The notes under the pieces: generated by a model
Told to the model about the DNA's origin: nothing
The model's input: the letters and a program-made list of their open reading frames with translations, nothing else
The model's database searches: none
Shown: positions 2,224 through 35,437 of the stretch, piece by piece
How positions within the stretch are numbered: position 1 is the first letter of the stretch
How the letters are laid out: each line of letters starts with the position of its first letter
Translations under genes and position numbers: made by a program
DNA from: an uncultured delta proteobacterium
GTDB lineage: Bacteria; Desulfobacterota; RBG-13-43-22
Direction: 5' to 3'
Length of the DNA stretch: 35,437 nucleotides
NCBI GenBank assembly: GCA_963843145.1
Contig: CAWJJC010000029.1
Coordinates: 1-35,437, forward strand

Positions 2224-2520
2224 CTAGGCGCTCAAATATCCCTTGAGCACATACGCGAGGCAGACTAGCAGATTGAACACCCCGGTGGCCCAAAACATGG
2301 CGTCGAACGTTCTCACCTTTTTCGCGGCTTCTTCGTAGTCCCGCACCAGATCATAAAGGCGTCTCACCTTGCCGGTTTTCCAGATTTTGATCCTCGAATA
2401 AACCGTCACCCCTCCTATCGCCCCAGAGGAAACCGCTAAGGCAAGGGGAATGGAGTGACTGGTCAAGACCGAAAAAATGGTCGCCGCCACTAAACCGATA
2501 TTGAGCCCCATTAAAAGCAA
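2224..2520 (-). CDS. small hypothetical membrane protein
   Basis: 98-aa ORF with three hydrophobic segments; no recognised family; start uncertain. Confidence 0.4.
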   Translation of the reverse strand: MLLMGLNIGLVAATIFSVLTSHSIPLALAVSSGAIGGVTVYSRIKIWKTGKVRRLYDLVRDYEEAAKKVRTFDAMFWATGVFNLLVCLAYVLKGYLSA

Positions 2521-2711
2521 AAGTAAGCTCCTCTTTGAATTTTACCCCTTCCTGTCCGGTTTACACAACCATAATAAAGAAAATTCAGGTTATGCAAATA
2601 TCCCTTCAGCAAACTCAAACAAGATCTCCAGGATTTATACTAACCAATAGATCGGTCTTTAGTATAATCGGCAAAAGGGTTATTTCGGGATAACAAGATT
2701 CATGGAATTGA

Positions 2712-2737
2712 ATACTATAGTCTGTAGATTTCTAGCC
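2712..2737 (+). promoter_or_regulatory. C-box operator for the R-M controller protein
   Basis: ATACTATAGTC-TGTA-GATTTCTAGCC resembles the two-operator GACTnATAGTC-TGTA-GACTnATAGTC pattern of C.PvuII/C.BamHI-type systems; it ends 22 nt before the C-gene ATG. Confidence 0.7.
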
Positions 2738-2759
2738 CTCTATCAATCATTATTCCACC

Positions 2760-3050
2760 ATGCATAGCTTCAATGAAAAAGATGCTAATGACAAAATGTT
2801 GGACACTGCTTTCGGTTTAGTCTTGCGTCGTCTTCGCCAGAAAGCTGGGCTATCACAGGAAGGGCTTGCTTTTGAAAGTGGATACCACCGCACCTACATC
2901 AGCCTTCTCGAACGCGGGAAGAAAAGCCCTTCTTTGCAAACAATATCCAGCTTGGCGAAAATATTAAAAATTGAGCTGTCAGATTTCATGAAAAAAGTCC
3001 AGGTCGAGGTCGACTCTCTATCTATGAACATAAAGAATGTTCTCGAATAG
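2760..3050 (+). CDS. R-M controller (C) protein, XRE-family HTH
   Basis: FGLVLRRLRQKAGLSQEGLAFESGYHRTYISLLERGKKSPSL is typical of C proteins; it lies 3 nt upstream of the endonuclease gene and follows a C-box. Confidence 0.85.
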   Translation: MHSFNEKDANDKMLDTAFGLVLRRLRQKAGLSQEGLAFESGYHRTYISLLERGKKSPSLQTISSLAKILKIELSDFMKKVQVEVDSLSMNIKNVLE

Positions 3051-3053
3051 GCC

Positions 3054-3662
3054 ATGAAAATCATTCATATTGAAAAGATTATCGACTTCGGAAGTTTTTC
3101 CCGGTCAACAGACTGGAAAAAAATAGAAGGGCATATCCTCCAATCCATCAAATCCATTGAATGGCCTCCAAATTCGGGCTCATTCACCCTCTTTGATGAA
3201 CCCGGGAAAAAACGTGGAAAAGGTAATGGTGTCAAACCAATTAAACTGGCATGCATGCAAAAATTGAAATCTTTCGGTTGGCAACTAGAAACACGGGTGG
3301 ATATTGCAACCTTGAAACGACCCGGTCCGATGGATGCCACCTATATTGTGGGCAATCGACTCTTCTGCCTTGAATGGGAGACAGGAAATATTTCGTCCAG
3401 CCACCGTTCGCTCAACAAAATGGCTTTGGGAATTCTTAAAGGATCACTGATCGGAGGTGCGTTAGTCGTCCCTACTCGTACAATGTATCGATATTTGACT
3501 GATCGTATCGGGAACCTCCAGGAACTTGAACCCTACTTTCCGCTATGGAAAGCCCTTTCTATCGCTCAGGGGCTCCTTGTCGTTATAGCCATAGAACATG
3601 ACGCAGTTAGCTCCACCGTCCCAAGGATCGAGAAGGGAACGGATGGACGGGCGTTGTCGTAA
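3054..3662 (+). CDS. type II restriction endonuclease, BamHI family
   Basis: NGVKPIK, D...LEWETGNISSSHRSLNK and YLTDRIGNLQELEPYF closely parallel BamHI motifs (NGVVPIK, EFETGNISSAHRSMNK, YLTDR..N.EELEPYF), including the D...ExE catalytic set. Confidence 0.9.
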   Translation: MKIIHIEKIIDFGSFSRSTDWKKIEGHILQSIKSIEWPPNSGSFTLFDEPGKKRGKGNGVKPIKLACMQKLKSFGWQLETRVDIATLKRPGPMDATYIVGNRLFCLEWETGNISSSHRSLNKMALGILKGSLIGGALVVPTRTMYRYLTDRIGNLQELEPYFPLWKALSIAQGLLVVIAIEHDAVSSTVPRIEKGTDGRALS

Positions 3663-3666
3663 GAAA

Positions 3667-5055
3667 CTATTTTTTCTGAAAAATAAGAATATATTCGCGC
3701 CGCATCGTATTTGTTATACCTGTGATGGGCCGACTCATCTTCTTGACTAATTTTAGTCCAAAACCAACTCCGATATCGATCAAAATTTCGTGTAATCCCA
3801 TGACCTCATCGGGTGAAACACCGAGCACCTTTCCAAGTTGATTGCTGTTTGTCCCCACGATAATAGTACAGAGACATTCCCGCCGCAAAACTCGCGCGCA
3901 TTCGGAAAGTATGCTTACCATGTCCTCTCGGTACCGTTGGTATTTCTCGGATAGGTTGCGGCCTCTCAAACCGACCATCCTTTCGCGAAGGGATTCGACT
4001 TCCACTCCCATGTAATTCAGATGAAATGAATCATTAGCCAGATAATCTATAGCGAAGCTGTAGGGTGGAGAAAATATTATTCCATCAATGCTTTCGCCGG
4101 GCAGCGGAAGCTCCCTAGCATCCCCCTCAAAAACTTCCGCTGGAGTTGGATCAATATTCAATTGGGATAAAACATTTTGAATTTTACCAGCAACGAATAA
4201 ATAACGCTCCAAAATGGCCTCAAATTGCCTTAAAGGATTTCTTTTGTTGCTCCTTTCCGAATAGCCTGCGCTGTCTAGATAGGCCAGCAGGAGGAAATTA
4301 TATGTTTTAGTAGTATCTTCACCCCAATCCGTTAATGGGGAATGATTTTTGTTGCCAGAATACTCCAACACCTCTTCCATGGCGACCAAGGCAGTCTTTT
4401 TTGTTTTTTCCTTGTTTATTTTGCTCGCAATCTTTGGTTGCCCGACCTTTTTCTGGAAATAAGCAAAAACCCTTTCACAGTTATTAAGGGCACCTTTAGC
4501 GCGTACCAAGGGCATTGTCAGTGTATCAAGTTTTGCCTGGGTCATAAATTGACAAAACGGGCTAGCGTCGAAACCCATAGATTTGATTTTCATCAAAGAT
4601 GCTTCAACCAATACAGTTCCTGAGCCCATCATAGGATCAAGTACAGTATCGCCAGGTTTAAGTCCCATTATGTTGATCAAACCCTTAATCATCTGGGGAT
4701 GGAATTTGCCCCGGTAAGGGAAAAGACCATGGGTGGCATAACCGGTGCGGAAAATATTATTTTCGAAAAAGGATTTTAAACGAGAGGAAGAACCGTTAGG
4801 CAATTTCAGTGTCTCGCCGGTACACATTAGAAAATGATGGGTGTATTCTCCCCCCGCAGCGGAAAAATATGCTCCATTATTAATGAGTTCCGTATCGGAT
4901 AGGAGTTTATTTTCGTAAAAGGCCAACTCCAATTCATAGAAATCATTTAGGTTCGGAATTAATCGCCGTCCTAGAGGAAACAATGCGTCCGAAAGGTCGA
5001 GACCCAGGCAATTGACCACCTTTCTTTTGTTCGTGATATTAACGTTATTCTCCAA
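3667..5055 (-). CDS. site-specific DNA methyltransferase, probably N4-cytosine, alpha-type motif order
   Basis: THGLFPYRGKFHPQ, SAM-binding motif VLDPMMGSGT ahead of catalytic SPPY, then ECARVLR. Confidence 0.85.
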   Translation of the reverse strand: MENNVNITNKRKVVNCLGLDLSDALFPLGRRLIPNLNDFYELELAFYENKLLSDTELINNGAYFSAAGGEYTHHFLMCTGETLKLPNGSSSRLKSFFENNIFRTGYATHGLFPYRGKFHPQMIKGLINIMGLKPGDTVLDPMMGSGTVLVEASLMKIKSMGFDASPFCQFMTQAKLDTLTMPLVRAKGALNNCERVFAYFQKKVGQPKIASKINKEKTKKTALVAMEEVLEYSGNKNHSPLTDWGEDTTKTYNFLLLAYLDSAGYSERSNKRNPLRQFEAILERYLFVAGKIQNVLSQLNIDPTPAEVFEGDARELPLPGESIDGIIFSPPYSFAIDYLANDSFHLNYMGVEVESLRERMVGLRGRNLSEKYQRYREDMVSILSECARVLRRECLCTIIVGTNSNQLGKVLGVSPDEVMGLHEILIDIGVGFGLKLVKKMSRPITGITNTMRREYILIFQKK

Positions 5056-5917
5056 TAAAATCTTCCGATTTGTGCGGCCGCAAATTTTCAGTTTGGAGGC
5101 GTTCGATGATCACTTCGCAACTTTCCAAATCCATTCCGATCCAATGGCGCTTAAGACGCTCACAAACATCATAGGTTGTCCCGCTACCTCCGAATGGATC
5201 TAGGACTAAATCATATTTATTGGTAGACATCTGAATCACCCGTTCAAGGACTTTAGTAGATAACTGGTTTAAGAGGCGTTTACGGCTCTTAAATTTCCAG
5301 TGCCTTACAGGGGTTATATCATTCCAAACGTCGGTCAAATTTACTCCATTTGGATTCATAGCCCCCCTGTGTCCACCATAATCCTTGATCTCTCCCCCAC
5401 AATGCCGGCACTTCTCAATAGGAGTCCGAATCTTAACAAAGGTTTTAGGTTTTCCTTTTGTGAAATAAAGTAAGCTATAATGAGAGGGATATAATCTTCC
5501 GGGTATTGGTAAGGTTAATTTTACGTTGATTGCTATCCAATGACGAAATGTTAAACCTGCTACAGTCAAGTAACTCCCCAACTGCATGTTCCATTTGGGT
5601 AAATTATAAACGAAAAATGCTCCTCCTGGCTTTAAAATTCTAACGCAGTGATCTAGCCATTCATTGCACCATTCCAGATAATCGCCATCCTTAAGGCTAT
5701 CATTAACACGGCTCCCATATTTTTTTGCCAGGTTAAACGGAGGATCTGCAAAAACGGTATCGATTACTTCGTCCTGAACATAGGGAAGTATTTGGAGGCA
5801 ATCGCCTTCATACAGCGCGCCGAATTTGCTCCCAAAGATCATCCGATCTTCGATTCCAGGCTTCATAACATTTGTGGTGGCCCAGTTCTCTGACTCACTT
5901 AATAATCGTACAGGCAT
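5045..5917 (-). CDS. M.BamHI-like amino-methyltransferase (beta class, probably m4C)
   Basis: GDCL...FADPPFN (motif IV) precedes VLDPFGGSGTT (motif I); LTDVWNDI; adjacent to a BamHI-like REase. Start uncertain. Confidence 0.9.
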   Translation of the reverse strand: MPVRLLSESENWATTNVMKPGIEDRMIFGSKFGALYEGDCLQILPYVQDEVIDTVFADPPFNLAKKYGSRVNDSLKDGDYLEWCNEWLDHCVRILKPGGAFFVYNLPKWNMQLGSYLTVAGLTFRHWIAINVKLTLPIPGRLYPSHYSLLYFTKGKPKTFVKIRTPIEKCRHCGGEIKDYGGHRGAMNPNGVNLTDVWNDITPVRHWKFKSRKRLLNQLSTKVLERVIQMSTNKYDLVLDPFGGSGTTYDVCERLKRHWIGMDLESCEVIIERLQTENLRPHKSEDFIGE

Positions 5918-5953
5918 AGTAAATTAATACCAATATTTGACCAAACATGGGGT

Positions 5954-8140
5954 TTAGCTGCACCTGGAAAATCCGCAGGAATGGCAGTTCAGACAGCCGT
6001 TTTCGTGGACCACCTGGCCGCCGCAATCCGGGCAGGAACCCATAAGCGATCCGCTTTCGGAGGTCTCGATCTGGGTGTAGTTGCCGATCACCCGGCCGAT
6101 GGCATCCGGGCAGGAGAGGACCTGGTGGCCGTTGACCCAGGCCGGAGAGGGGCAGCGAATCCCGGAAAGCTGCCGGATAACGGAACCCATGGAGATCCCG
6201 GAGCGCAGGGCCAGGGAAATCAATCGGCCGGTGGCCTCGATCTGGGACGAGGCGCAGCCCCCCGTTTTGCCCATCTGGGCGAAGACCTCGCAATACCCTT
6301 TTTCATCCTCGTTGATAGTTACATACAGTTTCCCGCAGCCGGTGTTGATCCGTTCCGTGACCCCGTTGGTCCGGTCCGGCCGGGGGCGGGGATTGATCTT
6401 CGGGCCTTCCGCCGGCTTGCTCAGATTCAGCACCTGGGTTTCCCGGCTCCCGTAGCGATAGATGGTGACCCCCTTACACCCCTCCCGGTAGGCCAGCAAA
6501 TAGGCGGTCTTGACTTCTTCCGGGGTGGCTTCCTCGGGAAAATTGATGGTCTTGGAGACGGCGTTGTCCGTGTGCCGCTGAAAGGCCGCCTGGATGCGTA
6601 TATGCCATTCCGGGTCGATATCGTGGGAGGTGACAAACAGGGTTTTCAACTCCTCCGGGATCCCTTCCAGGTGCTTGATGGAGCCTTCTTTGGCAATCTC
6701 CTCCATCAGTTCGGGCCGGTAAAAGCCCTTCTCCTTGGCCGCTTTTTTGAAGTAGGGATTAACCTCCACCATCCGGGTTCCGTCCAGCACTGTTCGATAG
6801 TAAGAGACGGCAAACAAGGGTTCAATGCCGCTGGAGGCCCCGGCAATGATGCTGATGGTCCCGGTGGGGGCCAGGGTGGTGGTGGTGGCGTTGCGCATGT
6901 AGGCCTTGGCCTTCCGCCCCGGATCATAGACGCTTCCCTTGAAATTGGGGAAATTTCCCCGCTCGCGGGCCAATTGGGTCGAAGATTTTCGGGCCTCGGT
7001 CTGAATGAATTCCATGATCTGCTCGGCCAGTTCCACGGCCCGCTCCGAGTTGTAGGGAACCCCCACCTGGATCAGCAGATCGGCAAAGCCCATCAAACCC
7101 AGGCCGATTTTGCGATTGCCCCGGGTCATTTTTTCGATCTCCGGCAGGGGGTATTTATTCACATCAATGACGTTATCCAGAAAATGGACCCCTTCCTGAA
7201 TAGTGCCGCGCAGCTTCTCGAAATTCACTTTGCCCTTTTTCACCATCCGGGCCAGGTTGAGGGACCCCAGGTTGCAGGACTCGTAGGGCAACAGGGGCTG
7301 TTCCCCGCAGGGATTGGTGGCCTCGATGGGTCCCAGATGCGGCGTCGGGTTATCCCGGTTGATCCGGTCGATAAACACCACTCCCGGTTCTCCGCTACGC
7401 CAGGCGGAATGGACGATCTTGTTAAAAATGGACAAGGCGGAAACGGAGCGGACGGCCTTACCGGTATGGGGATTGACCAGGTCATAGTTCTGATCCTTTT
7501 CCAGGGCCTCCATAAAGGCATCCGGGATGAGGACCGAGATATTGAAATTATTCAGGCGGTCGGTCTGCAGCTTGGCTTCAATAAACTTTTCAATATCCGG
7601 GTGGTCCACCCGGAGCAGTCCCATGTTGGCCCCCCGCCGGGTCCCCCCCTGCTTAATGGTCTCGGTGGCCACATCAAAAACGGTCATGAAAGAAATGGGG
7701 CCGCTGGAAATGCCGTGCGTGGATTTGACCGTATCCTTTTCCGGACGGATTCTGGAAAAGGAAAAGCCGGTCCCTCCGCCGCTTTTATGAATAATGGCCG
7801 TTTGTTTGATGGCCTCAAAAATGCTGTCAATCGAATCCTCCACCGGGAGAACAAAACAGGCGGAGAGCTGTCCCAGTTGGCGGCCGGCATTCATCAGGGT
7901 CGGAGAATTGGGCATAAACTCCAACTGGGTCATCATCCGAAAAAAAGTTTCCTCGCTCTTCTTAACCTGGGTCTTCTTCCCGTAGAGGGCGTCGGCCGAG
8001 GCCACCACCCGGGCCACCCGGCGAAACATGTCCTCCGGTTTCTCGATCACCTGCCCCTTGTCATTTTTCCGCAGGTAGCGTTTGTTTAAGACGATTTGGG
8101 CATTGGGTGACAGGACGATTTTAGAAACACGGGTGGCCAT
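5954..8140 (-). CDS. nrdJ: adenosylcobalamin-dependent (class II) ribonucleotide reductase with C-terminal TSCPD domain and Zn ribbon
   Basis: [57 protein letters not shown] and terminal CPDC...CHSCGFSRC; GAGGAG RBS before ATG 8140; no ATP cone seen. Confidence 0.95.
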
Positions 8141-11360: not shown

Positions 11361-11712
11361 ATGATTGGCCAACCAGTAGGCCCCCTTCGATTTATTCCAG
11401 GTGAAAACCGGGGGCGTTATCCCTATTGCAACCCGGTCTATATCGAAGAAGCCGGAATCCTGATCGATCCGGGCTCGGATCGAAAAGCCTTGATTAAGCT
11501 GCGGGATACCAGGCCCGTCCGCCAGATCTGGCTCAGCCACTGGCATGTGGATGGAGAAATCATCGATCTGGGTTCCTTGACCGTCGAAGTCCTCCCTACC
11601 CCGGGCCTTTTTCGAGTTCGGGGAAAGGGCCATTATGAAAAAGCATCTGGATTGGCTTGCAAAAAAAGAACGGATCGTTCAAGATGCAGACAGGTATTGC
11701 TTAATAAAATAG
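11361..11712 (+). pseudogene. MBL-fold metallo-hydrolase remnant with internal deletions
   Basis: GRYPYCN...ILIDPG...WLSHWH joins directly to DGEIIDLG...PTPG (HxHxDH and TPGH both cut short); another frame then gives AFFEFGERAIMKKHLDWL...* ending at 11712. Confidence 0.7.
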
Positions 11713-11722
11713 GAGGTCGGTT

Positions 11723-12214
11723 ATGGAAAAAAAAATGACCAATGTCGCCCGTTGGGTTCCCTGTTCGGTGGTGCTGCTGAGTGTTGCCGGCAAAAAGAAA
11801 AAAGATGCTATGACCGCTACCTGCATGTTCGTTTCCGAGGACCCGGCCTATTTTGTGGTCAGCGTGGCCAAGTCCTCCACCACCTATCAGTTGATCGAAG
11901 AATCAGCGGAATTTGTCCTGAATATCGCCTCCGCCGGCCAGGTCAAACTGGCCAAGGCCCTGGGTGCGACGCATGGCAGCCGGGTCGATAAATTCGCCAA
12001 GTTTAAAATCGGCCTGGAGAAATCAAGAGTCATCGCCTCGCCGGGCATCAAGGGTTCTTACGCCTTTCTCGAATGCCGGGTGGTCACCTCCTATCCGGTC
12101 GGGAAATATGTCATCTATTTGGCCGAGGCGGTCGATTACCGGGTGGATGAAAAAGCCGTTCCCCTGGCCTGGTTGTCCAACCGCTACTTCACGATTAAAG
12201 ACCCGGTGGGGTAA
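11723..12214 (+). CDS. flavin reductase family protein
   Basis: AMTAT...VSEDP...VSVAKSSTTYQLIEESAEFVLNI, DKF and FLECRV; AGGAGG RBS. Confidence 0.88.
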   Translation: MEKKMTNVARWVPCSVVLLSVAGKKKKDAMTATCMFVSEDPAYFVVSVAKSSTTYQLIEESAEFVLNIASAGQVKLAKALGATHGSRVDKFAKFKIGLEKSRVIASPGIKGSYAFLECRVVTSYPVGKYVIYLAEAVDYRVDEKAVPLAWLSNRYFTIKDPVG

Positions 12215-12311
12215 GGCGGAGCGCGAAGCGTTGGGTGCCGAGCGCAATCAAGGCACATACTAGTTCCTTGGGGGTTTAACGAAAATAGACTCTATGACCT
12301 GGAAAAAGGCC

Positions 12312-12357
12312 AATAATCAATAGTCAATTGATAATGAACAATTGATTATTGATTATT
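12312..12357. repeat. AT-rich inverted repeat with 7-bp periodicity
   Basis: AATAATCAATAGTCAATTG-N8-CAATTGATTATTGATTATT; the arms pair at 18 of 19 positions. Confidence 0.75.
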
Positions 12358-12466
12358 AATATCATGCGGTTAGAGAGTTGTCTCGGCCCTATTATTTTTA
12401 TGCCTTGGGGTGCCCCCCCCGAGCATGCGGGTTTAATACGAACATAGCACTGACCTTCCGCTTGTT

Positions 12467-13390
12467 GTGAAAGGCTTCCTTTTGATTTTCGATAAAACCG
12501 GCGAAGTGGCCCCGGGCTTTTACGTCATCGGGGCCAGTGAAGTCCCTTCCTATCTCCTGGACGGCGACCGGCCGGTTCTGTTCGATGCCGGCTTCAGCGT
12601 CTTGGGCCCTCTCTATGAACAGGCCATCCGGAAAATCCTGGGGGGGAGAAGCCCGAAAATCCTTTTCCTGACCCATGTCCACTTCGACCACTGCGGGGCC
12701 GCGGCTTATCTAAAAAAGGCCTTCCCCGGGTTGCTCATTGCCGCTTCCCAACGGGCGGCCGAGATTGTCCGGCGTCCTAACGCTCGGAAGCTGATGGCCG
12801 ACTTAAATGATTCGGCGGCGGACACGGTCAACCGCTGGAAACCGGAACTGCGCCTGGGCGGACCCTTTCAGCCCTTCGAGGTGGATCGGGTCCTGGTGGA
12901 TGGAGAGCGGATAGAACTGGGGCCGGGGCTTTCCGTCCAGGTGATGGCCACGCCAGGGCATACCTGGGATTTTCTGAGCTACTACATCCCGGAACGAAAG
13001 ATCTTGATTGCTTCCGAAGCGGTGGGCTGCGCCGATACCACGGGGTATGTGGTCACCGAATTTTTAGTGGACTATGAGGTCTATTTAAAATCCCTGACCC
13101 GGCTGGCGGCCCTCAAGGTGGACACCCTTTGCCAAGGCCACCGCCTGGTTTACACCGGGTCGGAGGTGGCGGATTATTTTAAACGGTCGCTCCGGACGGC
13201 TCCTCAATTCAAAAATCAAGTAGTTGATCTGCTGACCCGGGAGGACGGGGATATCCGGCGGGTAGTCGAATGGATCAAAGCCGATGAATATGACTCCCGG
13301 CCTGAACCCAAACAGCCGGAGCCGGCCTACCGAATCAACCTGGAGGCCCGGGTGCGCCACCTGGCCCAGAAATTAGCTACCAGGTCTTAA
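12467..13390 (+). CDS. MBL-fold metallo-hydrolase
   Basis: LFDAG, LTHVHFDHCG, TPGHT and CQGH. Confidence 0.9.
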   Translation: MKGFLLIFDKTGEVAPGFYVIGASEVPSYLLDGDRPVLFDAGFSVLGPLYEQAIRKILGGRSPKILFLTHVHFDHCGAAAYLKKAFPGLLIAASQRAAEIVRRPNARKLMADLNDSAADTVNRWKPELRLGGPFQPFEVDRVLVDGERIELGPGLSVQVMATPGHTWDFLSYYIPERKILIASEAVGCADTTGYVVTEFLVDYEVYLKSLTRLAALKVDTLCQGHRLVYTGSEVADYFKRSLRTAPQFKNQVVDLLTREDGDIRRVVEWIKADEYDSRPEPKQPEPAYRINLEARVRHLAQKLATRS

Positions 13391-13736
13391 TGATCTTCCG
13401 CCCTTCCCGCAGCTCTCCCCGGATCTTCTCCATATGCCGCAAGGAGGCGATTTCCCGCTCCAGGTCGGCCGGCTTGATCTGAAACCGTTCGGAAATCTGC
13501 CGAGGTTCAACGCCGCCGGTCTCCTGTAAGTATTCCACAATTTGTTTTTGCAAGGGACTGAGGACCGGTGCGGCCCCCCCGGCCTGGGCAAATGATTTGG
13601 CGCTGTGCACCGCCCAGGGATCGCAAGTCTTGGCCGGCGACAGGGCATCCATGTAGCAGTCTTCACAGAGGACCCGGCCGGCGTATTCCCTCTCCTCCCC
13701 TGATTCGATGGGGTCTTGACAACGTGCGCATTCCAT
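13377..13736 (-). CDS. hypothetical protein with N-terminal C4 zinc finger and C-terminal winged-HTH-like region
   Basis: CARC...LCEDCYMD, CDPWAV, then LSPLQKQIVEYLQETGG...LEREIASLRHMEKI. Confidence 0.7.
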   Translation of the reverse strand: MECARCQDPIESGEEREYAGRVLCEDCYMDALSPAKTCDPWAVHSAKSFAQAGGAAPVLSPLQKQIVEYLQETGGVEPRQISERFQIKPADLEREIASLRHMEKIRGELREGRKIIKTW

Positions 13737-13909
13737 AGCAACCTCTCCATTTTTTCTGAAGCGATTATATCATAAAGTAAGTCCGTTCGCCGGATAAATT
13801 CGTCTTCAAATTTTTACAGTTGTCCGGATAGGAGATAAGCATTATAATGATAGATTAAAAGCACAAAAAGATTTTTTGTACAAATTAAACATTACCAAAG
13901 GACGTTCCA

Positions 13910-14437
13910 ATGCAAGAATCGATTTTAAAAGGAAAAGTGATTTTGACAGTAGATGATGAACCGGACGTTTTAGAAATCTTAAAAGAAGATATTACGGAAG
14001 TCTGTGGGGGCTGCATCCTCCATCAGGCGAGCACCTATGAATCGGCCCTCGACCATCTGCGATCCTACACCTATGATCTGGTGGTCCTGGATATCATGGG
14101 GGTCCGGGGTTTCGATCTGCTTCAAGAGGCCGTGGTCAGGGGATTCCCAATCGCCATGCTTACGGCCCATGCCTTGTCTCCCGAAGCCATAAAGCGTTCC
14201 ATCGAAATGGGCGCCCGGGCCTATCTGCCCAAGGAAAAGCTCAGTGAAATTGTCCCCTTCCTGGAAGACGTCCTCCGCTACGAATCAGCCCCCGGTTGGA
14301 AACGCCTTTTTGAAAAGTTGGGGGGATTTTTCAACACCCGTTTCGGAGCCGGCTGGCAGAAAGCGGATGAATCTTTTTGGAAAGAGTTTCAGCAAAAGCT
14401 GGAATCCAATCAGCCGGTTATCCTGCCTAAACCCTAG
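13910..14437 (+). CDS. stand-alone response regulator (receiver domain)
   Basis: ILTVDDE, VVLDIMGVRG, MLTAH and GARAYLPK. Confidence 0.9.
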   Translation: MQESILKGKVILTVDDEPDVLEILKEDITEVCGGCILHQASTYESALDHLRSYTYDLVVLDIMGVRGFDLLQEAVVRGFPIAMLTAHALSPEAIKRSIEMGARAYLPKEKLSEIVPFLEDVLRYESAPGWKRLFEKLGGFFNTRFGAGWQKADESFWKEFQQKLESNQPVILPKP

Positions 14438-28165: not shown

Positions 28166-28420
28166 TCAGAATTCATCCTTTTCTTCATCTCCCGCAATCT
28201 GTTTTTCAAGTTCCTCCAAAGATGGAATATCCGGATGTTTCCCCCGGTATTCCCCGGGAATCCGTTTGGCCGCCTCACCGATAACTTCAAAATTTCGGAT
28301 TACGGCGTCTTGCGTCCTTTCATCGCGAAAAAAGGCTTCCTTCCCTTCAGCCGTAAATTCCATGATACGTTCAAGTCGTTCCAGAATCTGTGCCAGGTAA
28401 ACTCGGGGGTCTTTTTTCAT
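28166..28420 (-). pseudogene. HepT-like (DUF86/HEPN) toxin with an in-frame deletion of the active site
   Basis: DPRVYLAQIL, TQDAVIRNFEVIGEAAKRIP..HPDIP, then no W..xxxxRxxxxHxY segment; ATGA overlap with the upstream MNT gene. Confidence 0.8.
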
Positions 28421-28707
28421 AATGGTTTCGACTCCTTTAGAATCCTTCGACGCAAGAGCCAATAAATTCCATCCTCGGAAACGACATCCACCTTAACGCC
28501 CAGCAACTCCCTTAAGTCCAACACCAAGGCGCTCAGATCCAACGGACTCCGGTTCTCTTCCATCTTCACCAGGAAATCGATATCGCTTTCCGGACTGGAT
28601 TCACCCCGGGCCACTGAACCGAAAACCCTTACATTTTGGGCGCCGTGCTTGGCAGCCAAGGCTATCACATCATTACGTTTTTTCTGCAACAAGGCATCTA
28701 GTCTCAT
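28417..28707 (-). CDS. MNT (minimal nucleotidyltransferase) antitoxin
   Basis: VRVFGSVARGE...SDIDFLV and LLGVKVDVV. Confidence 0.9.
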   Translation of the reverse strand: MRLDALLQKKRNDVIALAAKHGAQNVRVFGSVARGESSPESDIDFLVKMEENRSPLDLSALVLDLRELLGVKVDVVSEDGIYWLLRRRILKESKPL

Positions 28708-28859: not shown

Positions 28860-29225
28860 TCAGTCATGGGATCTTCCCTTTCGGGACCTCCTGGCCCGGA
28901 ACCTGGAATCGTCCCCCAGATGGATGAAGATCCGGCCGCAAAGTTCTCCGCTTTCAATCACGGCCCATCCTCGACCGCTCGCGGAATCCAACTCCTCTTG
29001 TCCCTCCCAGGAAAATTCGATCCGCTCCCTCTTGTCGTCGGCGCCCAGACGACAATCCATCTCCCCCTGGACCAGGCCAAATTGAAAAAGTCCCGTACCA
29101 TTTTTATTAAACGTGAAATGTCCGGGAACCTCCATATTGACATACTCCTGGTCCCAGGCCTCCATCTCGATAATGGACCAGGTGCCGATAAAGGGCTTGA
29201 ATTCTTTGTTCATCGATTCAACCAT
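28860..29225 (-). CDS. hypothetical beta-rich protein
   Basis: 121 aa with globular-looking composition (GTWSIIEMEAWD, GTGLFQFG, FSWEG, GRGWA, GRIFIHLGDDS); no function recognised; start may be 29213. Confidence 0.7.
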   Translation of the reverse strand: MVESMNKEFKPFIGTWSIIEMEAWDQEYVNMEVPGHFTFNKNGTGLFQFGLVQGEMDCRLGADDKRERIEFSWEGQEELDSASGRGWAVIESGELCGRIFIHLGDDSRFRARRSRKGRSHD

Positions 29226-29812
29226 TCATAAAACTGGGAATTGATCTGCCGGTCGAGTTGCCGCACCGACCAGCCGCCGCGTAGGGCTTCAGTTTCGTAG
29301 AAACGCCTGGCATTTGCGTTCTTCACCGACAGGAGGCGGACATAGGCCGACCAGGGGAGAGGAAAACAGTCTGCTGTGAACCGCAGTACGACATCGGCTT
29401 GGGATGCTTGTGATTTTTTAGACGACGTCTGAAGAATTGCTTGATAATCCTTCGATTCGAGCAAAGACCGGGATTTTTCAGACGGCGTCTGAAAAATCCG
29501 GTTTGCCGGCCAAAGCAGATAAAACTTCTTCATCTGACTGAGATTAACTGCCCCAAAGCCTCGGCCGAACTTTGCCGTCAAATCTCCTGAAAGTCTCACA
29601 ATAAGCGCCAGCCCGTAATCCGCCCTGATGTTGCCAGCTTGCTCGGACTCGACAATGCGCCTTCCAATAATCCAATAGGCCGCTGTCATGATGCTGTTAA
29701 CCGAACGCGTCGCCGACCTCCTGGCCGTATCAATGACGTTGAGAATATCCTCGAGGATTGAATCGTATTGGCCGGCGGGGCCGCTGGTGCGTTTTGTCGG
29801 TTTAATGGTCAT
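29210..29812 (-). pseudogene. YhcG/DUF1016 protein, N-terminal domain only (C-terminal PD-(D/E)XK domain absent)
   Basis: VNSIMTAAYWIIGRRIVESEQAG..RADYG, FGRGFG..NL, LPWSAYVRLL, RRFYETEALRGGWSVRQLDRQINSQFYE, then an abrupt end. Confidence 0.8.
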
Positions 29813-29935: not shown

Positions 29936-31531
29936 TCACCCCAATTCCCTCTCAAGGCAGGCAAGCAGTTCGAGACAAGCCATAATGGCCGCCACAGCCA
30001 CACCAAGATGGATAGTCTGGCCGTCTGGATGCTGAGCGCGGTTCCGGAAATTATGGATCGCGTCGATTAGGACGTAAGTGTCTTTTGACACCGCCATTGC
30101 CTTGGTTTCGAAAAAACGTTGGCTTCCGGTAATTAATCCCAAGAGGCGAATCTGGTCTAGGGGTTCTGTTAGAACTTCCCAAGAATTGGTCTGCATCATT
30201 TGTTTGACAAGTCGATTTCCATCCCGAGGACTTGAAGACCAATAGGCAATAATATCTTGCGGCACACATCTCCCAGGCCCGAATTCGCGCTGCCAGATCA
30301 ATTTCAAGGCACAATCTCGGATGTTATTGAGGTTGTTCAGGCAGTCGTCGGGATAGTCCGGGATGTCACTTATCACCTGCTCGACCAGATGATGTAGCCG
30401 ATCATCAAAACGGGCAATATGGGCCAAACGCCGTTCCAGTAAGCTTCGGATGTTGAGGCGATAGGCGTCCCAAGAGCCAAACAGGTGACCCATACTGCCG
30501 GAATCCTCTTTAACGCCCCGAAGATAGAGATCCAGCAGGCGGCATGAAGGCGTGAGCTTATTGCCCACCTGCCGGGCGAAGCCCATCTCCACCAGACAAT
30601 TTCCCTCCTGCTTTCCTACTTCGGAACAATTTAAATCACCGTGTTCCAAAAGATGAGCATAAAGGTCTTTGGCCCCGGCAGGGCAATCCTGCCACATATC
30701 GCCAATTATTTCTTTCAAGGAGTCAAGCGCCTTATTCGCGCCCTTATTGACGTCCTCATTGTCAACCGACCCGCTCGGGATATCGGTAACGATCTGGTTC
30801 AAGACTCCCAGAAAAAACGGAGGGAGGCCCGCAGACCAATTGAACAGTTCGGTTTTAGCCCCCGCTTGGAAACGATGATCCGGCAGCAAACCGATAATTG
30901 TATCCCGATCCTGGTCATCGAATGGGCCGACCCTAACCGAGCTCATGTCGAAGATATTCCAGAAGGGGCTGCTGATGGCCTCTTGGCTACGGATCAATTG
31001 GCTTAAGGGCCTCCGGGACACTGTAATAATTTTATGTTTTCTCCCGTAAAAAAGCGCTCGCATCTGGTCCCAAAGGTGTCCTGTCAGCTTCCCTTGGCCC
31101 AGTGGTTTATCAAAGCCGTCCCACAACATGAGGATCGGCAACCCCTCTTCATCCAGCAAATCCATAACTTCCGAGAGATTACTGAAGGAGTGTTCCTTCA
31201 GATGCCGGCGATATTCAGAGGCTTTCGCCGGCACTCGGGCCAGGCTTTCTACTAGTTTGTCGCATAGTTCCGCGATAAAATCCTGGTCGGATTGGGGTGC
31301 GACACGGCCTAAATGCCAATGCAGCACAAACTGGTAAGGGGAAGGGCCAACGGTGACACGTTGAAAGAGGGCGTGGATAATAACGGTTTTGCCAATATAT
31401 CGAGGTCCGATCATGGATAAATTACTTGGCGTAGGTTTTGTCAGGTCTTTCCACATCCTCTCCATGATGCCGGCACGGCCAAGCATGGGTGGGACATCGG
31501 CTCCCAGGATTGGAAACCGCGAGTCAATCAT
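29936..31531 (-). CDS. STAND/AAA-like ATPase-fold protein with degenerate Walker B and putative C-terminal HEPN-like domain
   Basis: MLGR pre-P-loop motif, IGPRYIGKT, ILMLWDGFDK, SPFWNIF, AGLP and C-terminal FRNRAQH; 8-nt overlap with the upstream gene. Confidence 0.7.
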   Translation of the reverse strand: MIDSRFPILGADVPPMLGRAGIMERMWKDLTKPTPSNLSMIGPRYIGKTVIIHALFQRVTVGPSPYQFVLHWHLGRVAPQSDQDFIAELCDKLVESLARVPAKASEYRRHLKEHSFSNLSEVMDLLDEEGLPILMLWDGFDKPLGQGKLTGHLWDQMRALFYGRKHKIITVSRRPLSQLIRSQEAISSPFWNIFDMSSVRVGPFDDQDRDTIIGLLPDHRFQAGAKTELFNWSAGLPPFFLGVLNQIVTDIPSGSVDNEDVNKGANKALDSLKEIIGDMWQDCPAGAKDLYAHLLEHGDLNCSEVGKQEGNCLVEMGFARQVGNKLTPSCRLLDLYLRGVKEDSGSMGHLFGSWDAYRLNIRSLLERRLAHIARFDDRLHHLVEQVISDIPDYPDDCLNNLNNIRDCALKLIWQREFGPGRCVPQDIIAYWSSSPRDGNRLVKQMMQTNSWEVLTEPLDQIRLLGLITGSQRFFETKAMAVSKDTYVLIDAIHNFRNRAQHPDGQTIHLGVAVAAIMACLELLACLERELG

Positions 31532-34500
31532 GTTGGTCCTCCTTTGCCTTTCTTTTTATCGCAGAAAAATCGTGCTGTTTTTCAATCCAGGTTCCCATGA
31601 GAGGGATGGCCAAGACATAGTGCCCACCACCCATCCCGCCTATCAATTCGACCAGCTCGAGTTCCCGCAGGTAATCGAGGTCCTTGATCAAAGGTTCATC
31701 GGGAATATCGATCCCGTATTCCAAAAGTCGCTCTTGGATTACTTTAAGCCGAAGTGGATCCGGGCTTTCAGATTCTTTTTGGCAAAGGGCCAGGAGGAAT
31801 CGTCTTCGATCCGACCCGGCATAGTCCCAGAGGCTGGCAAAATGCTCATTATCCTGGACCAGGGCGTTCCCTGCTTGGTCCACCAAATCAAGCGTCACGG
31901 ATTGTTTTTTTAACTGCGCGGCCATGTCGAAAATACGATTACATAAGCATTGAAGGAGGTATGGCTGGCCGGAAGTAAGAAAGACCACCCTTTCAACGGC
32001 TTCCCTTGAATAGGTCAGACGGCCTTTGACGGGTTCGGTAACCAACCGGCGGGCATGCTCCGCGGGAAGAGACGTCACCCCGAATCGGGTACCCAATCCG
32101 TACAGAGCAGACCAATGGGCCTCGCGCAGCCTCTTCATTCGCCTCGAACCGGTTAAGATAGCGGAAAATCAGGGAAAGGTTTGAAGCAAAACCCGAATAT
32201 TTTCTGGTACTTGTGGCGATGTAACGCCACTTTCGATGCCTTCCTGGAGTTTGTCAAATTCATCCAACATTAGTAGAAGGCTGAGATGATGTTCCTCCAA
32301 CATTTCCAGGGCAACTTCCAGGTAGTCCCGAAAATCGGAAAAAGGCGATACCTCGCTGATCCCTTCACGGCAGGCTTGGCTATGCCGAGTTTCTTTCCAG
32401 GAGGCAGCGCGCTTCGATCTGGGAGAGGCGTCTTATCTCCCAACGATTGAAGCCCATTGGCGATACTCCTGGCCATCCCCCGAAAAACATCTACAGTTGG
32501 TACGCCCACCCCCTCCCGACTGCCTTCCATGCTTGGAGGCTGCAGTAAATACCCAGCCAACCTGGGATAGCTTCAACGCCTACCAGATGAAAAAGCACTG
32601 AGGATTTACCTGAACGGCGGTTCCCTTCCAACAGGACCACATTCCCACTTCGAGTAATTTGCCGCCGGATTTGCTCGAGTAACTCTTCGCGGCCAAAAAA
32701 GACGTCATTGCGCTAGGGGCTGACCGGGTCGCCGCAAACATAAGGACTTGCCCCTGCTTCCGTTTCGGTCTGGACTTTGTCGGATGGTTTGGTTACGAAA
32801 TCCAAGGCGATTTCACGAACTCCAGCCACGGGTCTTCCATCGATGGTTTTAGCTGCCCAGGAAATTTCCAGACTTAAACTACCAGATTTTTTTGGAGCAA
32901 TCCCTGAAAGTCCAACGATAGTTTTCGATTTTTCGACTAGATAAGGAGTCCCGCCAACACCCCAGTTAGGATTTGACGTAACACGAAGGTCGCGAAGCGG
33001 AAGGGGCCCCCGATTCTCCACAGTGAGATCAAGTTTAACCTTTTCTCCGGCAGGAAATACAGTGGTTTGGGGATCAATAATTAATCCACCCTTTCAATCA
33101 AGGCAGCACAGCCTCTATTAATCCAGGTGACCACCCGCGTTGTAAGATCTCTGGCTGCGCTCTCATTTGGAAGGTGCCCTTTAATCAGCGAAACGGAATC
33201 ATTCAAATTTCGGGCTGATTCCTGAAGTACGCTCAATAATCCGGGCCCCAAAGGAAAATTGCTGAGCCCTCGCAGACCAGCCAAGGCTTGGCTAAAGGCA
33301 AGAAACCAGGATGTAAGGATACTCTCCCCATGCCTTTGGTGCGCTACCATATTCCGGATCTCACGAACTTCTACGGCAAGACGATCAAGGAGTGTGAGGT
33401 CCAGAGGGTCATTTGCCGTTTCCATGTCAACAGTAAAATTATTGCTTGCTTTGTACGCCCACTCGTCTATAGGATCCCGTTCCCCCTTTGTTAAGAGCTG
33501 GGACAGGAAGACCACTGCATCAACCCCATTCTCACGAAATGTTGTTCCAACCTGTTGTTGAATTTGAAAGGGCGGGATCGGTACCGGCAAATCTTCAAGA
33601 GTTCTAATGGAAAGATGCCGAATGGTGTCCCCTCGCGCCCGGTCGTCCATCCAAGCCTTGACATCCTTACTATTTAGGTAGGCTAGTAAGAAATGGGGAT
33701 CAAGGCGATCTTGATTAGGACGTAACACGAATAAACCGGAGGCAGCGATGCCCCCTACTCCACCGTTGCGGACCACCCCAACCTTGCCAATAGTGCCGGA
33801 CTTGGATAGCAGAATATCTCCCGCTTTAAGTTTCCATCGAGAATCTGCCGAAGCCGCAGCATCCGGGGAAAGCCAGGATGACCCGCTATTGACCTGACCT
33901 CGCTGCACATCCTTGATGCGCACGAAAGGGATCAGCGGGGCATCCAGAAGGGATAACTGCTTGGACCGATCCGGCTCGCTAAATAGTCTTTGTTGCTCAG
34001 GCACCCCTACCCTGAATAGCGGAGAATCAAGAAGTTGCTCGCGGTTGAATGTTCTCCCAATAGATATGTAGCAGCATTCCTTGAGCGGATGGATTTCGAT
34101 ATTGGCGCCCAATTCACCAAGTAACCCTGCAAGGCTGCTCTGCTCACGTCGTTTGGGGGTAAAATCCCAATCCAACTCGACCAGGGTTTCCGGGTCGATA
34201 TCCCAACCGTGATTTCCAGGATTGGAGCTTTGGACTTGTTTAACAAGGTCTTCGATTTGTTCCTGGGGGATCTTTTCCGGCCGGCTGCCCTTCCCTTTCG
34301 AGAAAAAGGACTCGGCATCGATCATTCGGATGCTTTTAGTCGAACCTCCCCGCCGGAGCACGAGCACAGCGGCTTTAATTCCGGTATAAGGCAAAAAAAT
34401 TCCTGTCGGCAATGAGATAACTGCTTCAACCGTATGTTGTTCCAGCAGCAGGCGCCGCAAACGCTGCTCCGGACCGCCGCGGAACAAAAAACCTTGGGGC

Positions 34501-35437
34501 ACAACGATCACGGCACGGCCGTTTGGTTTTAAATGCGAGAGGGAATGCTGGATGAAAAGACCGGTGGCATCACTTGATAGCACGGGAAAGTGATCCAGTC
34601 CGGCAGGGTCGACTCGAATGCCCCAGGGCGGATTGGCGATGGCCACATCAAAGCCTTCTGTCTGAGGATGATTGGAAGACGGCCGTTCCAGGGCATTACC
34701 CAATTCGAGGTGGGGGTCATCGATCCCGGCCAGGGCAAGGCGGACCAGTCCGATCAGGTAGGCATTCGGATTGATTTCGATGCCGGAAATATCCAGCGGC
34801 GGTTGCCCATTGCGTTTAAGCCCTTCTGCCCCCTTTCGCAGGACGTGTTCACAGGCAGCCGTAAGTAAGCCTGCCAGTCCGAAGCAGGGATCGTATAGGC
34901 GTTCACCAGCGGAAGGGTCTGCCAGCGCCACCAAGAGCCGGGCCACCGCCTCGGGTGTTCTGAATTCGCCGAGGTGGGGACCTTTAGTCGCGTTTAATAC
35001 TCTATCGAATTGGTCAAGCAGTATCCGGCGGTCATGAGGGGTTTCGAAGGGTTGGTCCGCCAGCCATCGGGTCATGCCGAACAGGACTTGTGGGGAGAGT
35101 TTTCCCAAGATTTTTAATAGCCGGCGCCAAGCGATGCAGGTGGGTCGCCAGCGGGCTATGGCGGGAATTGTTCAGCCTTTCTAAATTGTGGGCAAGGCGT
35201 TCGGACAATATCCTTCTAAGCTCATCCGCCGGAAAGGATTGCCAGGTCCGCCAATGGAACGAAGAGTGCAAAACGGCGCGATATTCGGTCTCGTCGAAAG
35301 CCGCCATAGCCTCCTGTTCGGCCTCCTGGAAATCAGCCCAGCGGAGGTAGATCAGGGCGGCCATTGAAACCGCTAAATCTTGGTTTGGGTGACCTGAATT
35401 AGCCCATAGGCGGTCGAGAACTTCCCAGGTTTCGGAC
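31524..35437 (-). pseudogene. fused HsdM-like N6-adenine methyltransferase + TRD (HsdS-like) + STAND-like ATPase; disrupted; 5' end outside the window
   Basis: Joining frames gives ALIYLRW, GEFRTP, LYDPCFG, NPPW, GRAVIVVPQGFLF, a TRD (GDILLSKSGTIGK...LPVPIPPFQIQ), PYVCGDPV..FFGRE, GNRRSGKS, LLLMLDEFD and GQPYLLQ. Frameshifts near 35100, 33085, 32532 and 32375; in-frame stops at 32713-32715 and 32169-32171. Confidence 0.85.

Follow-up and report, generated by a model that had tools for sequence, protein, structure and literature searches.

A methylase-specificity domain-STAND ATPase fusion and its paralogous ATPase partner form a conserved pair at the tail of type I restriction-modification operons, with a recently broken copy in an uncultured Desulfobacterota genome

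What is the role of a gene in which a restriction methylase, a DNA specificity domain, and a nucleotide-dependent switch are joined in a single chain? The question is raised by one end of a 35,437-nucleotide stretch of DNA from an uncultured delta proteobacterium (Desulfobacterota; GenBank assembly GCA_963843145.1, contig CAWJJC010000029.1), which we call the window. The window is an entire contig (C29, 1-35437) of a 32-contig metagenome-assembled genome (MAG) with a completeness of 97.9% and a contamination of 6.9%. On its minus strand, positions 31524-35437 form a single gene of about 1320 codons for an HsdM-type methylase, one HsdS-type target recognition domain (TRD), a helical bundle, a beta-sandwich, and a STAND-type ATPase, followed by a gene for a 531-amino-acid partner (29936-31531). 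A preliminary description, made from the letters of the DNA alone, had proposed an undescribed defense system. In this study, we compared 65 related loci (53 groups at 97% DNA identity) and found that the fusion and the 531-amino-acid partner are, judged by their sequences, a conserved and translationally coupled pair. In intact relatives, the pair is the tail of an inducible restriction-modification (R-M) operon and probably provides an extra anti-phage alarm. The copy in the window is a pseudogene that was recently broken.

The fusion was first seen as five minus-strand open reading frames (ORFs; 35032-35364, 33081-35108, 32713-33021, 32270-32560, and 31524-32138), all of which are present at these coordinates. 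The proposal that they and the gaps between them make up one gene was borne out by a tblastn alignment of the intact 1323-amino-acid protein of locus L005, residues 19-1323 of which align collinearly with positions 35436-31527 in five pieces and three frames, with four frame changes. Because the contig ends at 35437, about 18 N-terminal codons of the fusion are missing. Its stop codon (31524-31526) overlaps the ATG of the second P-loop protein, as the preliminary description had it, and the overlap comprises 8 nt (ATGATTGA). The closest intact relative, at locus L036, shares 89% DNA identity with the window over 5495 nt, and alignment to it confirmed the six lesions first suspected, exactly that number being found: four single-base indels and two stop codons. 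All on the minus strand, they are an extra base near 35108, absent from a related contig of sequencing run X3; a missing base at 33084, present in a related contig of run X3; an in-frame TAG at 32710-32712, where L036 has AAG; a missing base at 32531; a missing base at 32375, where a related contig of run X2 has an extra base at 32372; and an in-frame TGA at 32166-32168, where L036 has ATA and most homologues have arginine. Compared with L036, the fusion has a ratio of nonsynonymous to synonymous substitution rates of 0.135 and the partner one of 0.167; the fusion was therefore constrained through most of the divergence, and the break is recent.

Assembly error is a conceivable source of the frameshifts, because all four are single-base indels and C29 is a strain-variant contig that duplicates C28:463159-487801 of the same, partly contaminated MAG at 94-99% identity. 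If C29 were a low-coverage assembly of this kind, the fusion could be intact in the living cell, and three of the indels are absent from related contigs in other runs. We nevertheless regard this explanation as improbable. Two of the lesions are nonsense substitutions rather than indels, and the 22.8 kb common to C29 and C28 contain few indels and keep long ORFs open; from the indel positions and the ORF list, we take the indels there to lie between genes or to compensate one another. The related contigs without the three frameshifts come from relatives at 90 to 95% identity, that is, from another strain. At most 0.12 of the sampled words were found in any sequencing run, and the related contigs (90-99% identical) cover the locus patchily, none at 99% spanning a lesion. 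Decay also recurs elsewhere in the family: a genome of the same genus (G003) retains only the last 33 codons of the partner, beside a repeated element; loci L070 and L078 retain only the 3' end of the fusion; and two of three plasmid copies match in 3 to 4 pieces with no annotated gene, so that they are probably broken as well. The functional defense system proposed for the window is thus not found in this copy, and, as the remains of a decaying locus on a strain-variant contig, it serves us as a pointer to a family.

Is the pair a constant feature of that family? With the ATPase half of the L036 fusion as the query, 5399 cluster representatives matched at an E value of 1e-3 or below, and 294 matched at 1e-30 or below. 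Among the best 150 of these representatives, 107 are at least 1200 amino acids long, 18 have 700 to 1199 residues, and 25 fall below that length, many of these having the look of fragments. Homologues with the methylase and ATPase encoded separately, which the preliminary description had named as telling against its proposal, are not the rule; fusion is. Relatives of the partner number 346 at an E value of 1e-3 or below among clusters at 90%, and the best 120 of the 346 are all 327 to 540 amino acids long. Conservation of the two genes together, likewise raised at the outset, was also upheld. An intact fusion lies directly upstream of the partner in 41 of the 65 loci, including L047, where it reaches the locus edge; in the remaining loci, the fusion frame is open to the locus edge (14), the locus is uninformative (5), the fusion is absent (3; L043, which equals L074, and L044), or a truncated remnant is left (2). 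The pairing is therefore compatible with 55 of 60 informative loci, with a complete fusion in 41. As a separate observation, the partner without a fusion in L043 (7419-9731) stands behind a CD-NTase of the type found in cyclic-oligonucleotide-based antiphage signaling systems (CBASS; E 2.7e-46 to 7ljo_A) and a sigma-54 promoter match at 7436.

The genes upstream of intact fusions are equally constant. Of the 36 loci in which 1.3 kb or more lies upstream, 35 have an hsdS-like gene. The hsdM gene occurs in 32 of the 33 with 3 kb or more, and hsdR in 19 of the 21 with 4.5 kb or more; the exceptions are due to inserted extra genes or, in L005, to a fused hsdM-S. These genes lie on the same strand as the fusion, with stop and start codons that overlap or are close. 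The best NCBIfam match of the R subunit is EcoAI/FtnUII NF046051 (E 8.2e-60, 203 bits against a curated cut-off of 550), and by this resemblance the accompanying R-M system appears to be EcoAI-like, type IB. In L036, the order is sigma-54 activator, hsdR (791 amino acids), hsdM (497), hsdS (395), fusion (1314), and partner (530), and the last four genes overlap by 4 to 8 nt. The statement that no HsdR accompanies the pair thus holds for this contig and fails for its relatives, where hsdR is just upstream. With hsdR, hsdM, and hsdS in this position, the pair supplements a type I R-M operon and does not make up a self-contained system free of a nuclease. The claim that the system is undescribed survives in part: the ATPase half and the partner have no model in Pfam (2025 copy), PADLOC 2.0, NCBIfam 20.0, or the PDB sequences, but the genes to which they are appended are hsdRMS. 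Source records label the fusion "N-6 DNA methylase," "type I restriction enzyme M protein," or "hypothetical protein." A full-text literature search for an HsdM-TRD-STAND fusion accompanied by another ATPase yielded no description; tables of candidate systems in the supplements, which may list the pair, lay outside its scope.

The family is patchily distributed. By record titles and source names it occurs in many phyla, yet it was found in only 2 of 400 other genomes of the window's phylum, and a partner query of 60 other genomes (E of 0.001 or below) recovered only the 33-codon G003 remnant and a weak match of 54 residues in G027 (E 5.4e-4). A search of a phage collection with the ATPase half gave no match. 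Downstream genes vary and include CBASS in 5 loci and a large unknown protein with a DEAD helicase in 6 or 7 loci, among others. In one otherwise standard cassette (L089, G245:C19 7800-9460), an OLD-family ATPase with a TOPRIM nuclease domain lies between hsdS and the fusion. Two other arrangements bear on how the pair is interpreted. On a large Acinetobacter ursingii plasmid (L083, NZ_MH220285.1 190665-209945), the order is hsdR-fusion-partner with 8-nt overlaps and no separate hsdM or hsdS, and methylase motif IV reads HPPV; a WYL regulator gene is close by. In G092 (L090, G092:C72 5000-10005, minus strand), a sigma-54 activator is followed by a partner-like ATPase of 546 amino acids and a stand-alone ATPase of 597 amino acids akin to the fusion C terminus; this locus has no methylase head and no hsdR, and a WYL/WCX regulator is nearby.

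How is such an operon switched on? A sigma-54 promoter of the form TGGCAC-N5-TTGC[AT] stands 40 to 85 nt ahead of hsdR in 14 of 16 loci, eleven times perfectly and three times with one mismatch. Across both strands of all 65 loci (765,874 nt), there are 14 perfect matches, 12 of which lie ahead of hsdR, where about 0.7 would be expected by chance. The promoter of L036 is at 910-925, with equivalent places in L046-L073. At the upstream edge of 14 loci there is an activator gene; the central domain of its product is NtrC-like (E 1.9e-70), and the first approximately 180 residues match no solved chain. Since a sigma-54 promoter and an NtrC-family activator precede hsdR, the type I R-M operon is apparently inducible. 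Such control is unusual for an R-M operon and, if the reading holds, raises the question of how a cell survives switching restriction on.

The anatomy of the fusion was read from its N terminus on the minus strand of the window. A piece of the HsdM N-terminal domain (35092-35437; PADLOC MTase_I E 4.2e-08, profile positions 10-113) carries LRWADFQEAE at 35317-35346, and the N6-adenine methylase core (34095-35024; Pfam N6_Mtase E 1.2e-46) has motif I DPCFG at 34878-34892 and motif IV NPPW at 34623-34634. The single HsdS-type TRD (33540-33932; Pfam Methylase_S E 1.1e-09) matches PADLOC Specificity_I (E 3.2e-21) over residues 393-523 of the same 675-amino-acid piece that contains the N6_Mtase match. 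In the AlphaFold2 model of the L036 orthologue, a helical bundle linker (33087-33539, helices 7-148) and an immunoglobulin-like beta-sandwich (32770-33080, strands 152-248; no Pfam match) follow. The C-terminal region (31527-32748) is a PaBy2304-like ATPase of the STAND/ORC clade with lid and winged helix, in which SPYVCGDPVSP lies at 32716-32748, FFGRE at 32686-32700, Walker A GNRRSGKS at 32602-32625, Walker B LLLMLDEFD at 32253-32279, and GQPYLLQ at 31950-31970; the motifs named in the preliminary description were all found where it had put them. A second HEPN motif in the linker, REIRNMVAH (33339-33365), was considered and rejected, as it is absent from many of 31 homologues.

Judged by these matches, the head is a bona fide type I module. 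The closest solved chains to the L036 head are the type I HsdM 5ybb_A (E 1.4e-46, residues 5-383) and the HsdS 5ybb_D, and the window copy has both the HsdM N-terminal domain and a gamma-class N6-adenine core with motif I and motif IV (N/D-PP-aromatic). It is not a separate HsdM: such a subunit would have about 500 amino acids and act in an M2S1 complex with a two-TRD HsdS, whereas here one chain of about 1320 residues has a single TRD and a C-terminal ATPase, and its NCBIfam hsdM score is 65.8 against a cut-off of 242.75. The ATPase has the features of a STAND protein, namely, a P-loop, Walker A and B motifs, a helical lid, and a winged helix with GxP, in a fold near NB-ARC, NACHT, and ORC; matches to Pfam nSTAND1, AAA_16, and NACHT are all under the curated cut-offs.

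The partner is intact in the window (29936-31531, minus strand). Residues 1-345 make up another PaBy2304-like ATPase, which also has a winged helix, and residues 345-531 form a helical tail; Walker A lies at 31385-31408, Walker B at 31100-31132, SPFWNIFD at 30947-30970, and FRNRAQH at 30029-30049. This ATPase had been called degenerate, a description that does not suit it: the P-loop is canonical, and G42, G47, K48, and D138 are invariant in 45 sequences. The HEPN domain proposed for the tail has no significant sequence support. Neither Pfam (35 tails) nor PDB profiles gave a significant match, one of the 35 members matching HEPN_Swt1 at E 0.098, and hhalign found the tail unrelated to the C-terminal half of the fusion (probability 0.4%). 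Whole-model fold searches are uninformative for the tail, as they are for the helical bundle and the beta-sandwich, since the ATPase fills the match lists. FRNRAQH lies at the end of helix 483-498 and in the loop ahead of the last helix (509-530), the place at which the HEPN motif Rx4-6H sits according to PMC3710099 (the end of the penultimate helix or the loop to the last one). In 46 sequences, the histidine is present in all 46, the arginine in 25, and glycine in its stead in 21. From this placement, it is plausible that the tail is HEPN-like, and we refer to it as a putative HEPN-like tail.

Do the two proteins act together? The fusion and the partner have paralogous ATPases, both of the PaBy2304 fold. 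A prediction of the complex, which the preliminary description had suggested, gave for the fusion ATPase module and the partner an ipSAE score of 0.79 (0.78, 0.80, and 0.79 in three runs) against 0.00 for the best control; a score of 0.79 is reached by 58 of 80 solved complexes and by 2 of 110 mismatched pairs. At least 86% of the contacts are common to the three runs, and the partner has a pLDDT of at least 86. In the model, the interface consists on the fusion side of the SPYVCGDPV peptide, the Walker A arginines, and the GQP helix and on the partner side of the LTKxTPSNLS and SPFWNIFD motifs, all of which are family invariant. The two ATPases are thus predicted to bind each other as a heterodimer. 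Because our own alignments were used and AAA+ pairs are among the solved structures, the score supports binding without showing it.

The head varies in a manner unlike that of the ATPase. All 107 full-length representatives keep Walker A, and 106 keep Walker B. The N/D of methylase motif IV is present in 48 of them and replaced by V, A, C, T, S, or H in 59; in the window's own subfamily, N/D-PP occurs in 30 of 31 sequences. Mean pairwise identity is 0.54 for the methylase core and 0.54 for the TRD, 0.35 for the linker, 0.37 for the beta-sandwich, 0.72 for the P-loop, and 0.63 for the lid and winged helix. The TRD is as conserved as the methylase core and is therefore not hypervariable, unlike the TRD of an HsdS, which sets a strain-specific recognition sequence; the neighboring HsdS proteins are 22 to 60% identical, and the HsdM proteins 75 to 89% identical, to their L009 counterparts. 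We also considered whether the fusion TRD is a copy of the TRD of its own HsdS and rejected this, as the own HsdS ranks 2 to 25 among all loci. A conserved TRD, optional catalysis in the head, a constant ATPase pair, and a nearly always present hsdR fit a sensor better than a modification enzyme. The more specific idea that the head reads self and nonself methylation fits poorly, given the motif IV losses and a TRD unlike the neighboring HsdS.

We read the pair as restriction-linked back-up immunity built from STAND parts. To the computed anatomy, linkage, promoter, paralogy, predicted binding, and decay, this reading adds a ligand, an activation step, and an effector that we infer. The head would be a DNA clamp, or a decoy of the type I methylase core, and its ligand would be a constant one: foreign DNA or an anti-restriction protein that mimics DNA. 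Binding of the ligand would lead to nucleotide-dependent assembly of the ATPase pair, which would turn on an effector, namely, the partner tail, the HsdR of the operon, or both, as a back-up to restriction. We give this interpretation, a methylase/TRD-headed STAND pair acting as a second line of defense behind restriction, a probability of about 0.5. Several observations weigh against it. The copy in the window is nonfunctional; the tail, which may be the effector, has no match among Pfam or PDB sequence families, and nearly half of the sequences compared (21/46) have glycine in place of its HEPN-type arginine. G092 has the ATPase pair without any methylase head, and the arrangement on the A. 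ursingii plasmid is explained no less well by a fusion that works directly with HsdR than by a guard. Members of the window's subfamily, to go by their motif IV, may be active methylases and no decoys, and the complex score may in part reflect likeness to solved AAA+ pairs. More tentatively still, we suggest that the family is an undescribed class of two-component STAND sensor, in which an often catalytically dead type I methylase/TRD clamp would detect DNA-mimic anti-restriction proteins or a constant feature of foreign DNA; encoded in a six-part, sigma-54/activator-inducible cassette with type IB R-M across many phyla, it would fire the HEPN-like tail or HsdR as a suicide nuclease. If true, this would be a new way to build a STAND receptor, with a restriction methylase and specificity domain bolted onto an NTPase as the sensor and a paralogous ATPase as the mate, and a widespread unnamed layer added to type I restriction.

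The constancy of hsdR, the most regular feature of the layout even on the A. ursingii plasmid, also suits a fusion that is a working M.S subunit, dimerizing via its half-S region, docking HsdR, and adding a second fixed specificity, with the ATPases only regulating assembly or restriction alleviation. The retained HsdM N-terminal domain, the closeness of the head to the 5ybb chains, and the intact motifs I and IV in 30 of 31 close relatives agree with this, and an engineered EcoKI M-S fusion has been reported (PMC3510504). We consider a working M.S subunit unlikely, since motif IV lacks N/D in more than half of the representatives (59/107), including the plasmid copy, whose HPPV motif has no other methylase beside it; since the TRD lacks the hypervariability of R-M specificity domains; and since no part of the protein is better conserved than the ATPase motifs. 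Phage replication might also be blocked without cleavage by a system like bacteriophage exclusion (BREX), in which a TRD-bearing methylase would act with an ORC-clade ATPase and the STAND-like protein paired with it; the layout here echoes PglX, BrxC, and BrxB (PMC12839542). We find little to recommend such an exclusion system here: no PglZ, BrxL, or BrxA was found among the genes scanned in L009 and L036, the match to BrxC is far poorer than that to PaBy2304, the NCBIfam PglX model misses the fusion, and Walker motifs are kept in the two ATPases, in contrast to BrxB. Control of the operon by sigma-54 and an activator, and the occurrence in G092 of the activator and two ATPases without any R-M gene, would finally be in keeping with a regulatory or epigenetic module of the sigma-54 regulon that has no part in immunity, such as a chromatin or transcription switch with a methylase-like DNA reader. 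Such a module is very improbable in view of the distribution across many phyla despite rarity within the window's own, the constant R-M linkage, the CBASS, OLD-TOPRIM, and helicase genes around the locus, and the repeated loss of the pair.

The surroundings of the broken pair belong to a site that differs between the strains assembled together. Positions 1-28096 of the window are the reverse-oriented strain-variant duplicate (94-99%) of C28:463159-487801, and the C28 and C29 haplotypes part company precisely at the start of the island that carries the gene pair. At the island site, the C28 haplotype (L082, G000:C28:449000-463300, ORFs 11791-14015) has a ParA-like AAA_31 ATPase and a Schlafen AlbA_2/HATPase_c_4 protein, followed by housekeeping genes. 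The island site is a variable hotspot between co-assembled strains. Next to the partner in the window is a YhcG/DUF1016 gene with the N-terminal domain alone (29210-29812, minus strand; Pfam DUF1016_N E 2.3e-39); its L036 counterpart (11572-12404) has DUF1016_N and YhcG_C, the latter being the PD-(D/E)XK nuclease half that is missing in the window, and in other loci this gene is not conserved as a neighbor. An MNT (NTP_transf_2) and HepT-like pair with overlapping ORFs lies at 28166-28707; the HepT-like ORF may be truncated, because it has just 98 amino acids and covers only profile positions 1-47 of 120. A low-GC insertion (42-48%) at 2520-5957 is absent from the C28 haplotype and encodes a BamHI-like restriction endonuclease (3054-3662, E 6.8e-59) and two N6_N4 methylases (3667-5055 and 5045-5917). 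A search of the window's genome at the protein and DNA levels found no close copy of the hsdR, hsdM, or hsdS of the cassette. Besides the locus, this genome holds only unrelated, partly broken type I genes, which match HsdM, HsdS, or HsdR queries in split frames or with internal stops (G000 C20:126-131 kb, C20:441-446 kb, and C28:95.3-96.6 kb). Several restriction systems of this organism may be decaying.

Which known systems does the pair resemble? The statement that its layout is unlike those of BREX and MADS agrees with our results. Like BREX, it combines a methylase that has its own TRD with an ORC-clade ATPase and a paired STAND-like protein (PMC12839542), and the BrxC chains 9zdx and 9zll are among the fold matches; it differs in having no PglZ, BrxA, or BrxL in the loci scanned, an HsdM-type methylase fused to the ATPase, and two ATPases that are both predicted to be active. 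For the methylation-associated defense system (MADS), the PADLOC mad2 and mad5 and NCBIfam MAD2 and MAD5 models match the methylase and TRD parts, but they cover only generic methylase and TRD domains and the scores are far under the cut-offs (MAD2, 71.5 against 720; MAD5, 45.4 against 400), and the match of the partner to PADLOC mad8 is confined to the P-loop (21.9 bits). PaBy2304 (2qen) and SSO1545 (2fna) are stand-alone archaeal "ATPase_2" proteins with neither a methylase head nor a helical tail; to our knowledge, they have no assigned function. The logic of sensor, STAND NTPase, and effector recalls Avs proteins and nucleotide-binding leucine-rich repeat receptors, and Avs3 (8dgc), Avs5 (9jap), a plant receptor of this kind, CED-4, and Apaf-1 are among the fold matches. 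STAND NTPases oligomerize upon ligand binding and so activate an effector domain; for the pair described here, the prediction is that of a heterodimer. The difference is that the switch here is split over two paralogous ATPases and that the sensor is an N-terminal methylase/TRD head instead of a C-terminal repeat domain.

The closest parallels in operon logic are two systems that stand next to type I restriction. PrrC is an anticodon nuclease that cuts tRNA and that the R-M complex keeps inactive until a phage anti-restriction factor frees it. It is a single protein with an ABC-type ATPase and an HEPN-type RNase tail, and it has no methylase/TRD head and no second ATPase. Our pair differs from it in having both of these, in accompanying type IB R-M, and in a tail whose HEPN nature is putative, and no sequence relation to PrrC was found in the libraries searched (PADLOC and NCBIfam). 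The likeness is that of an NTPase-bearing accessory gene within a type I R-M operon, as in EcoprrI of type Ic, thought to fire upon blocked restriction, a model mentioned in passages of 10.1101/2023.04.06.535777 and PMC3710099; a place in the operon like that of such a guard is what the hsdS, hsdM, and hsdR counts given above describe. Ronin of E. coli ECOR55 (bioRxiv 10.1101/2023.04.06.535777) is presented there as an HsdM/HsdS-like sensor or decoy for anti-restriction proteins in which methylase catalysis is dispensable (F287G in NPPF), and the 59 of 107 representatives without the N/D of motif IV suggest that catalysis may be dispensable in our family too. As described there, Ronin has separate hsdS and hsdM genes and a 61-amino-acid membrane effector, RonA, with no hsdR and no ATPase, whereas the head described here is fused to a STAND ATPase, has a second ATPase as its partner, and shares its operon with hsdR.

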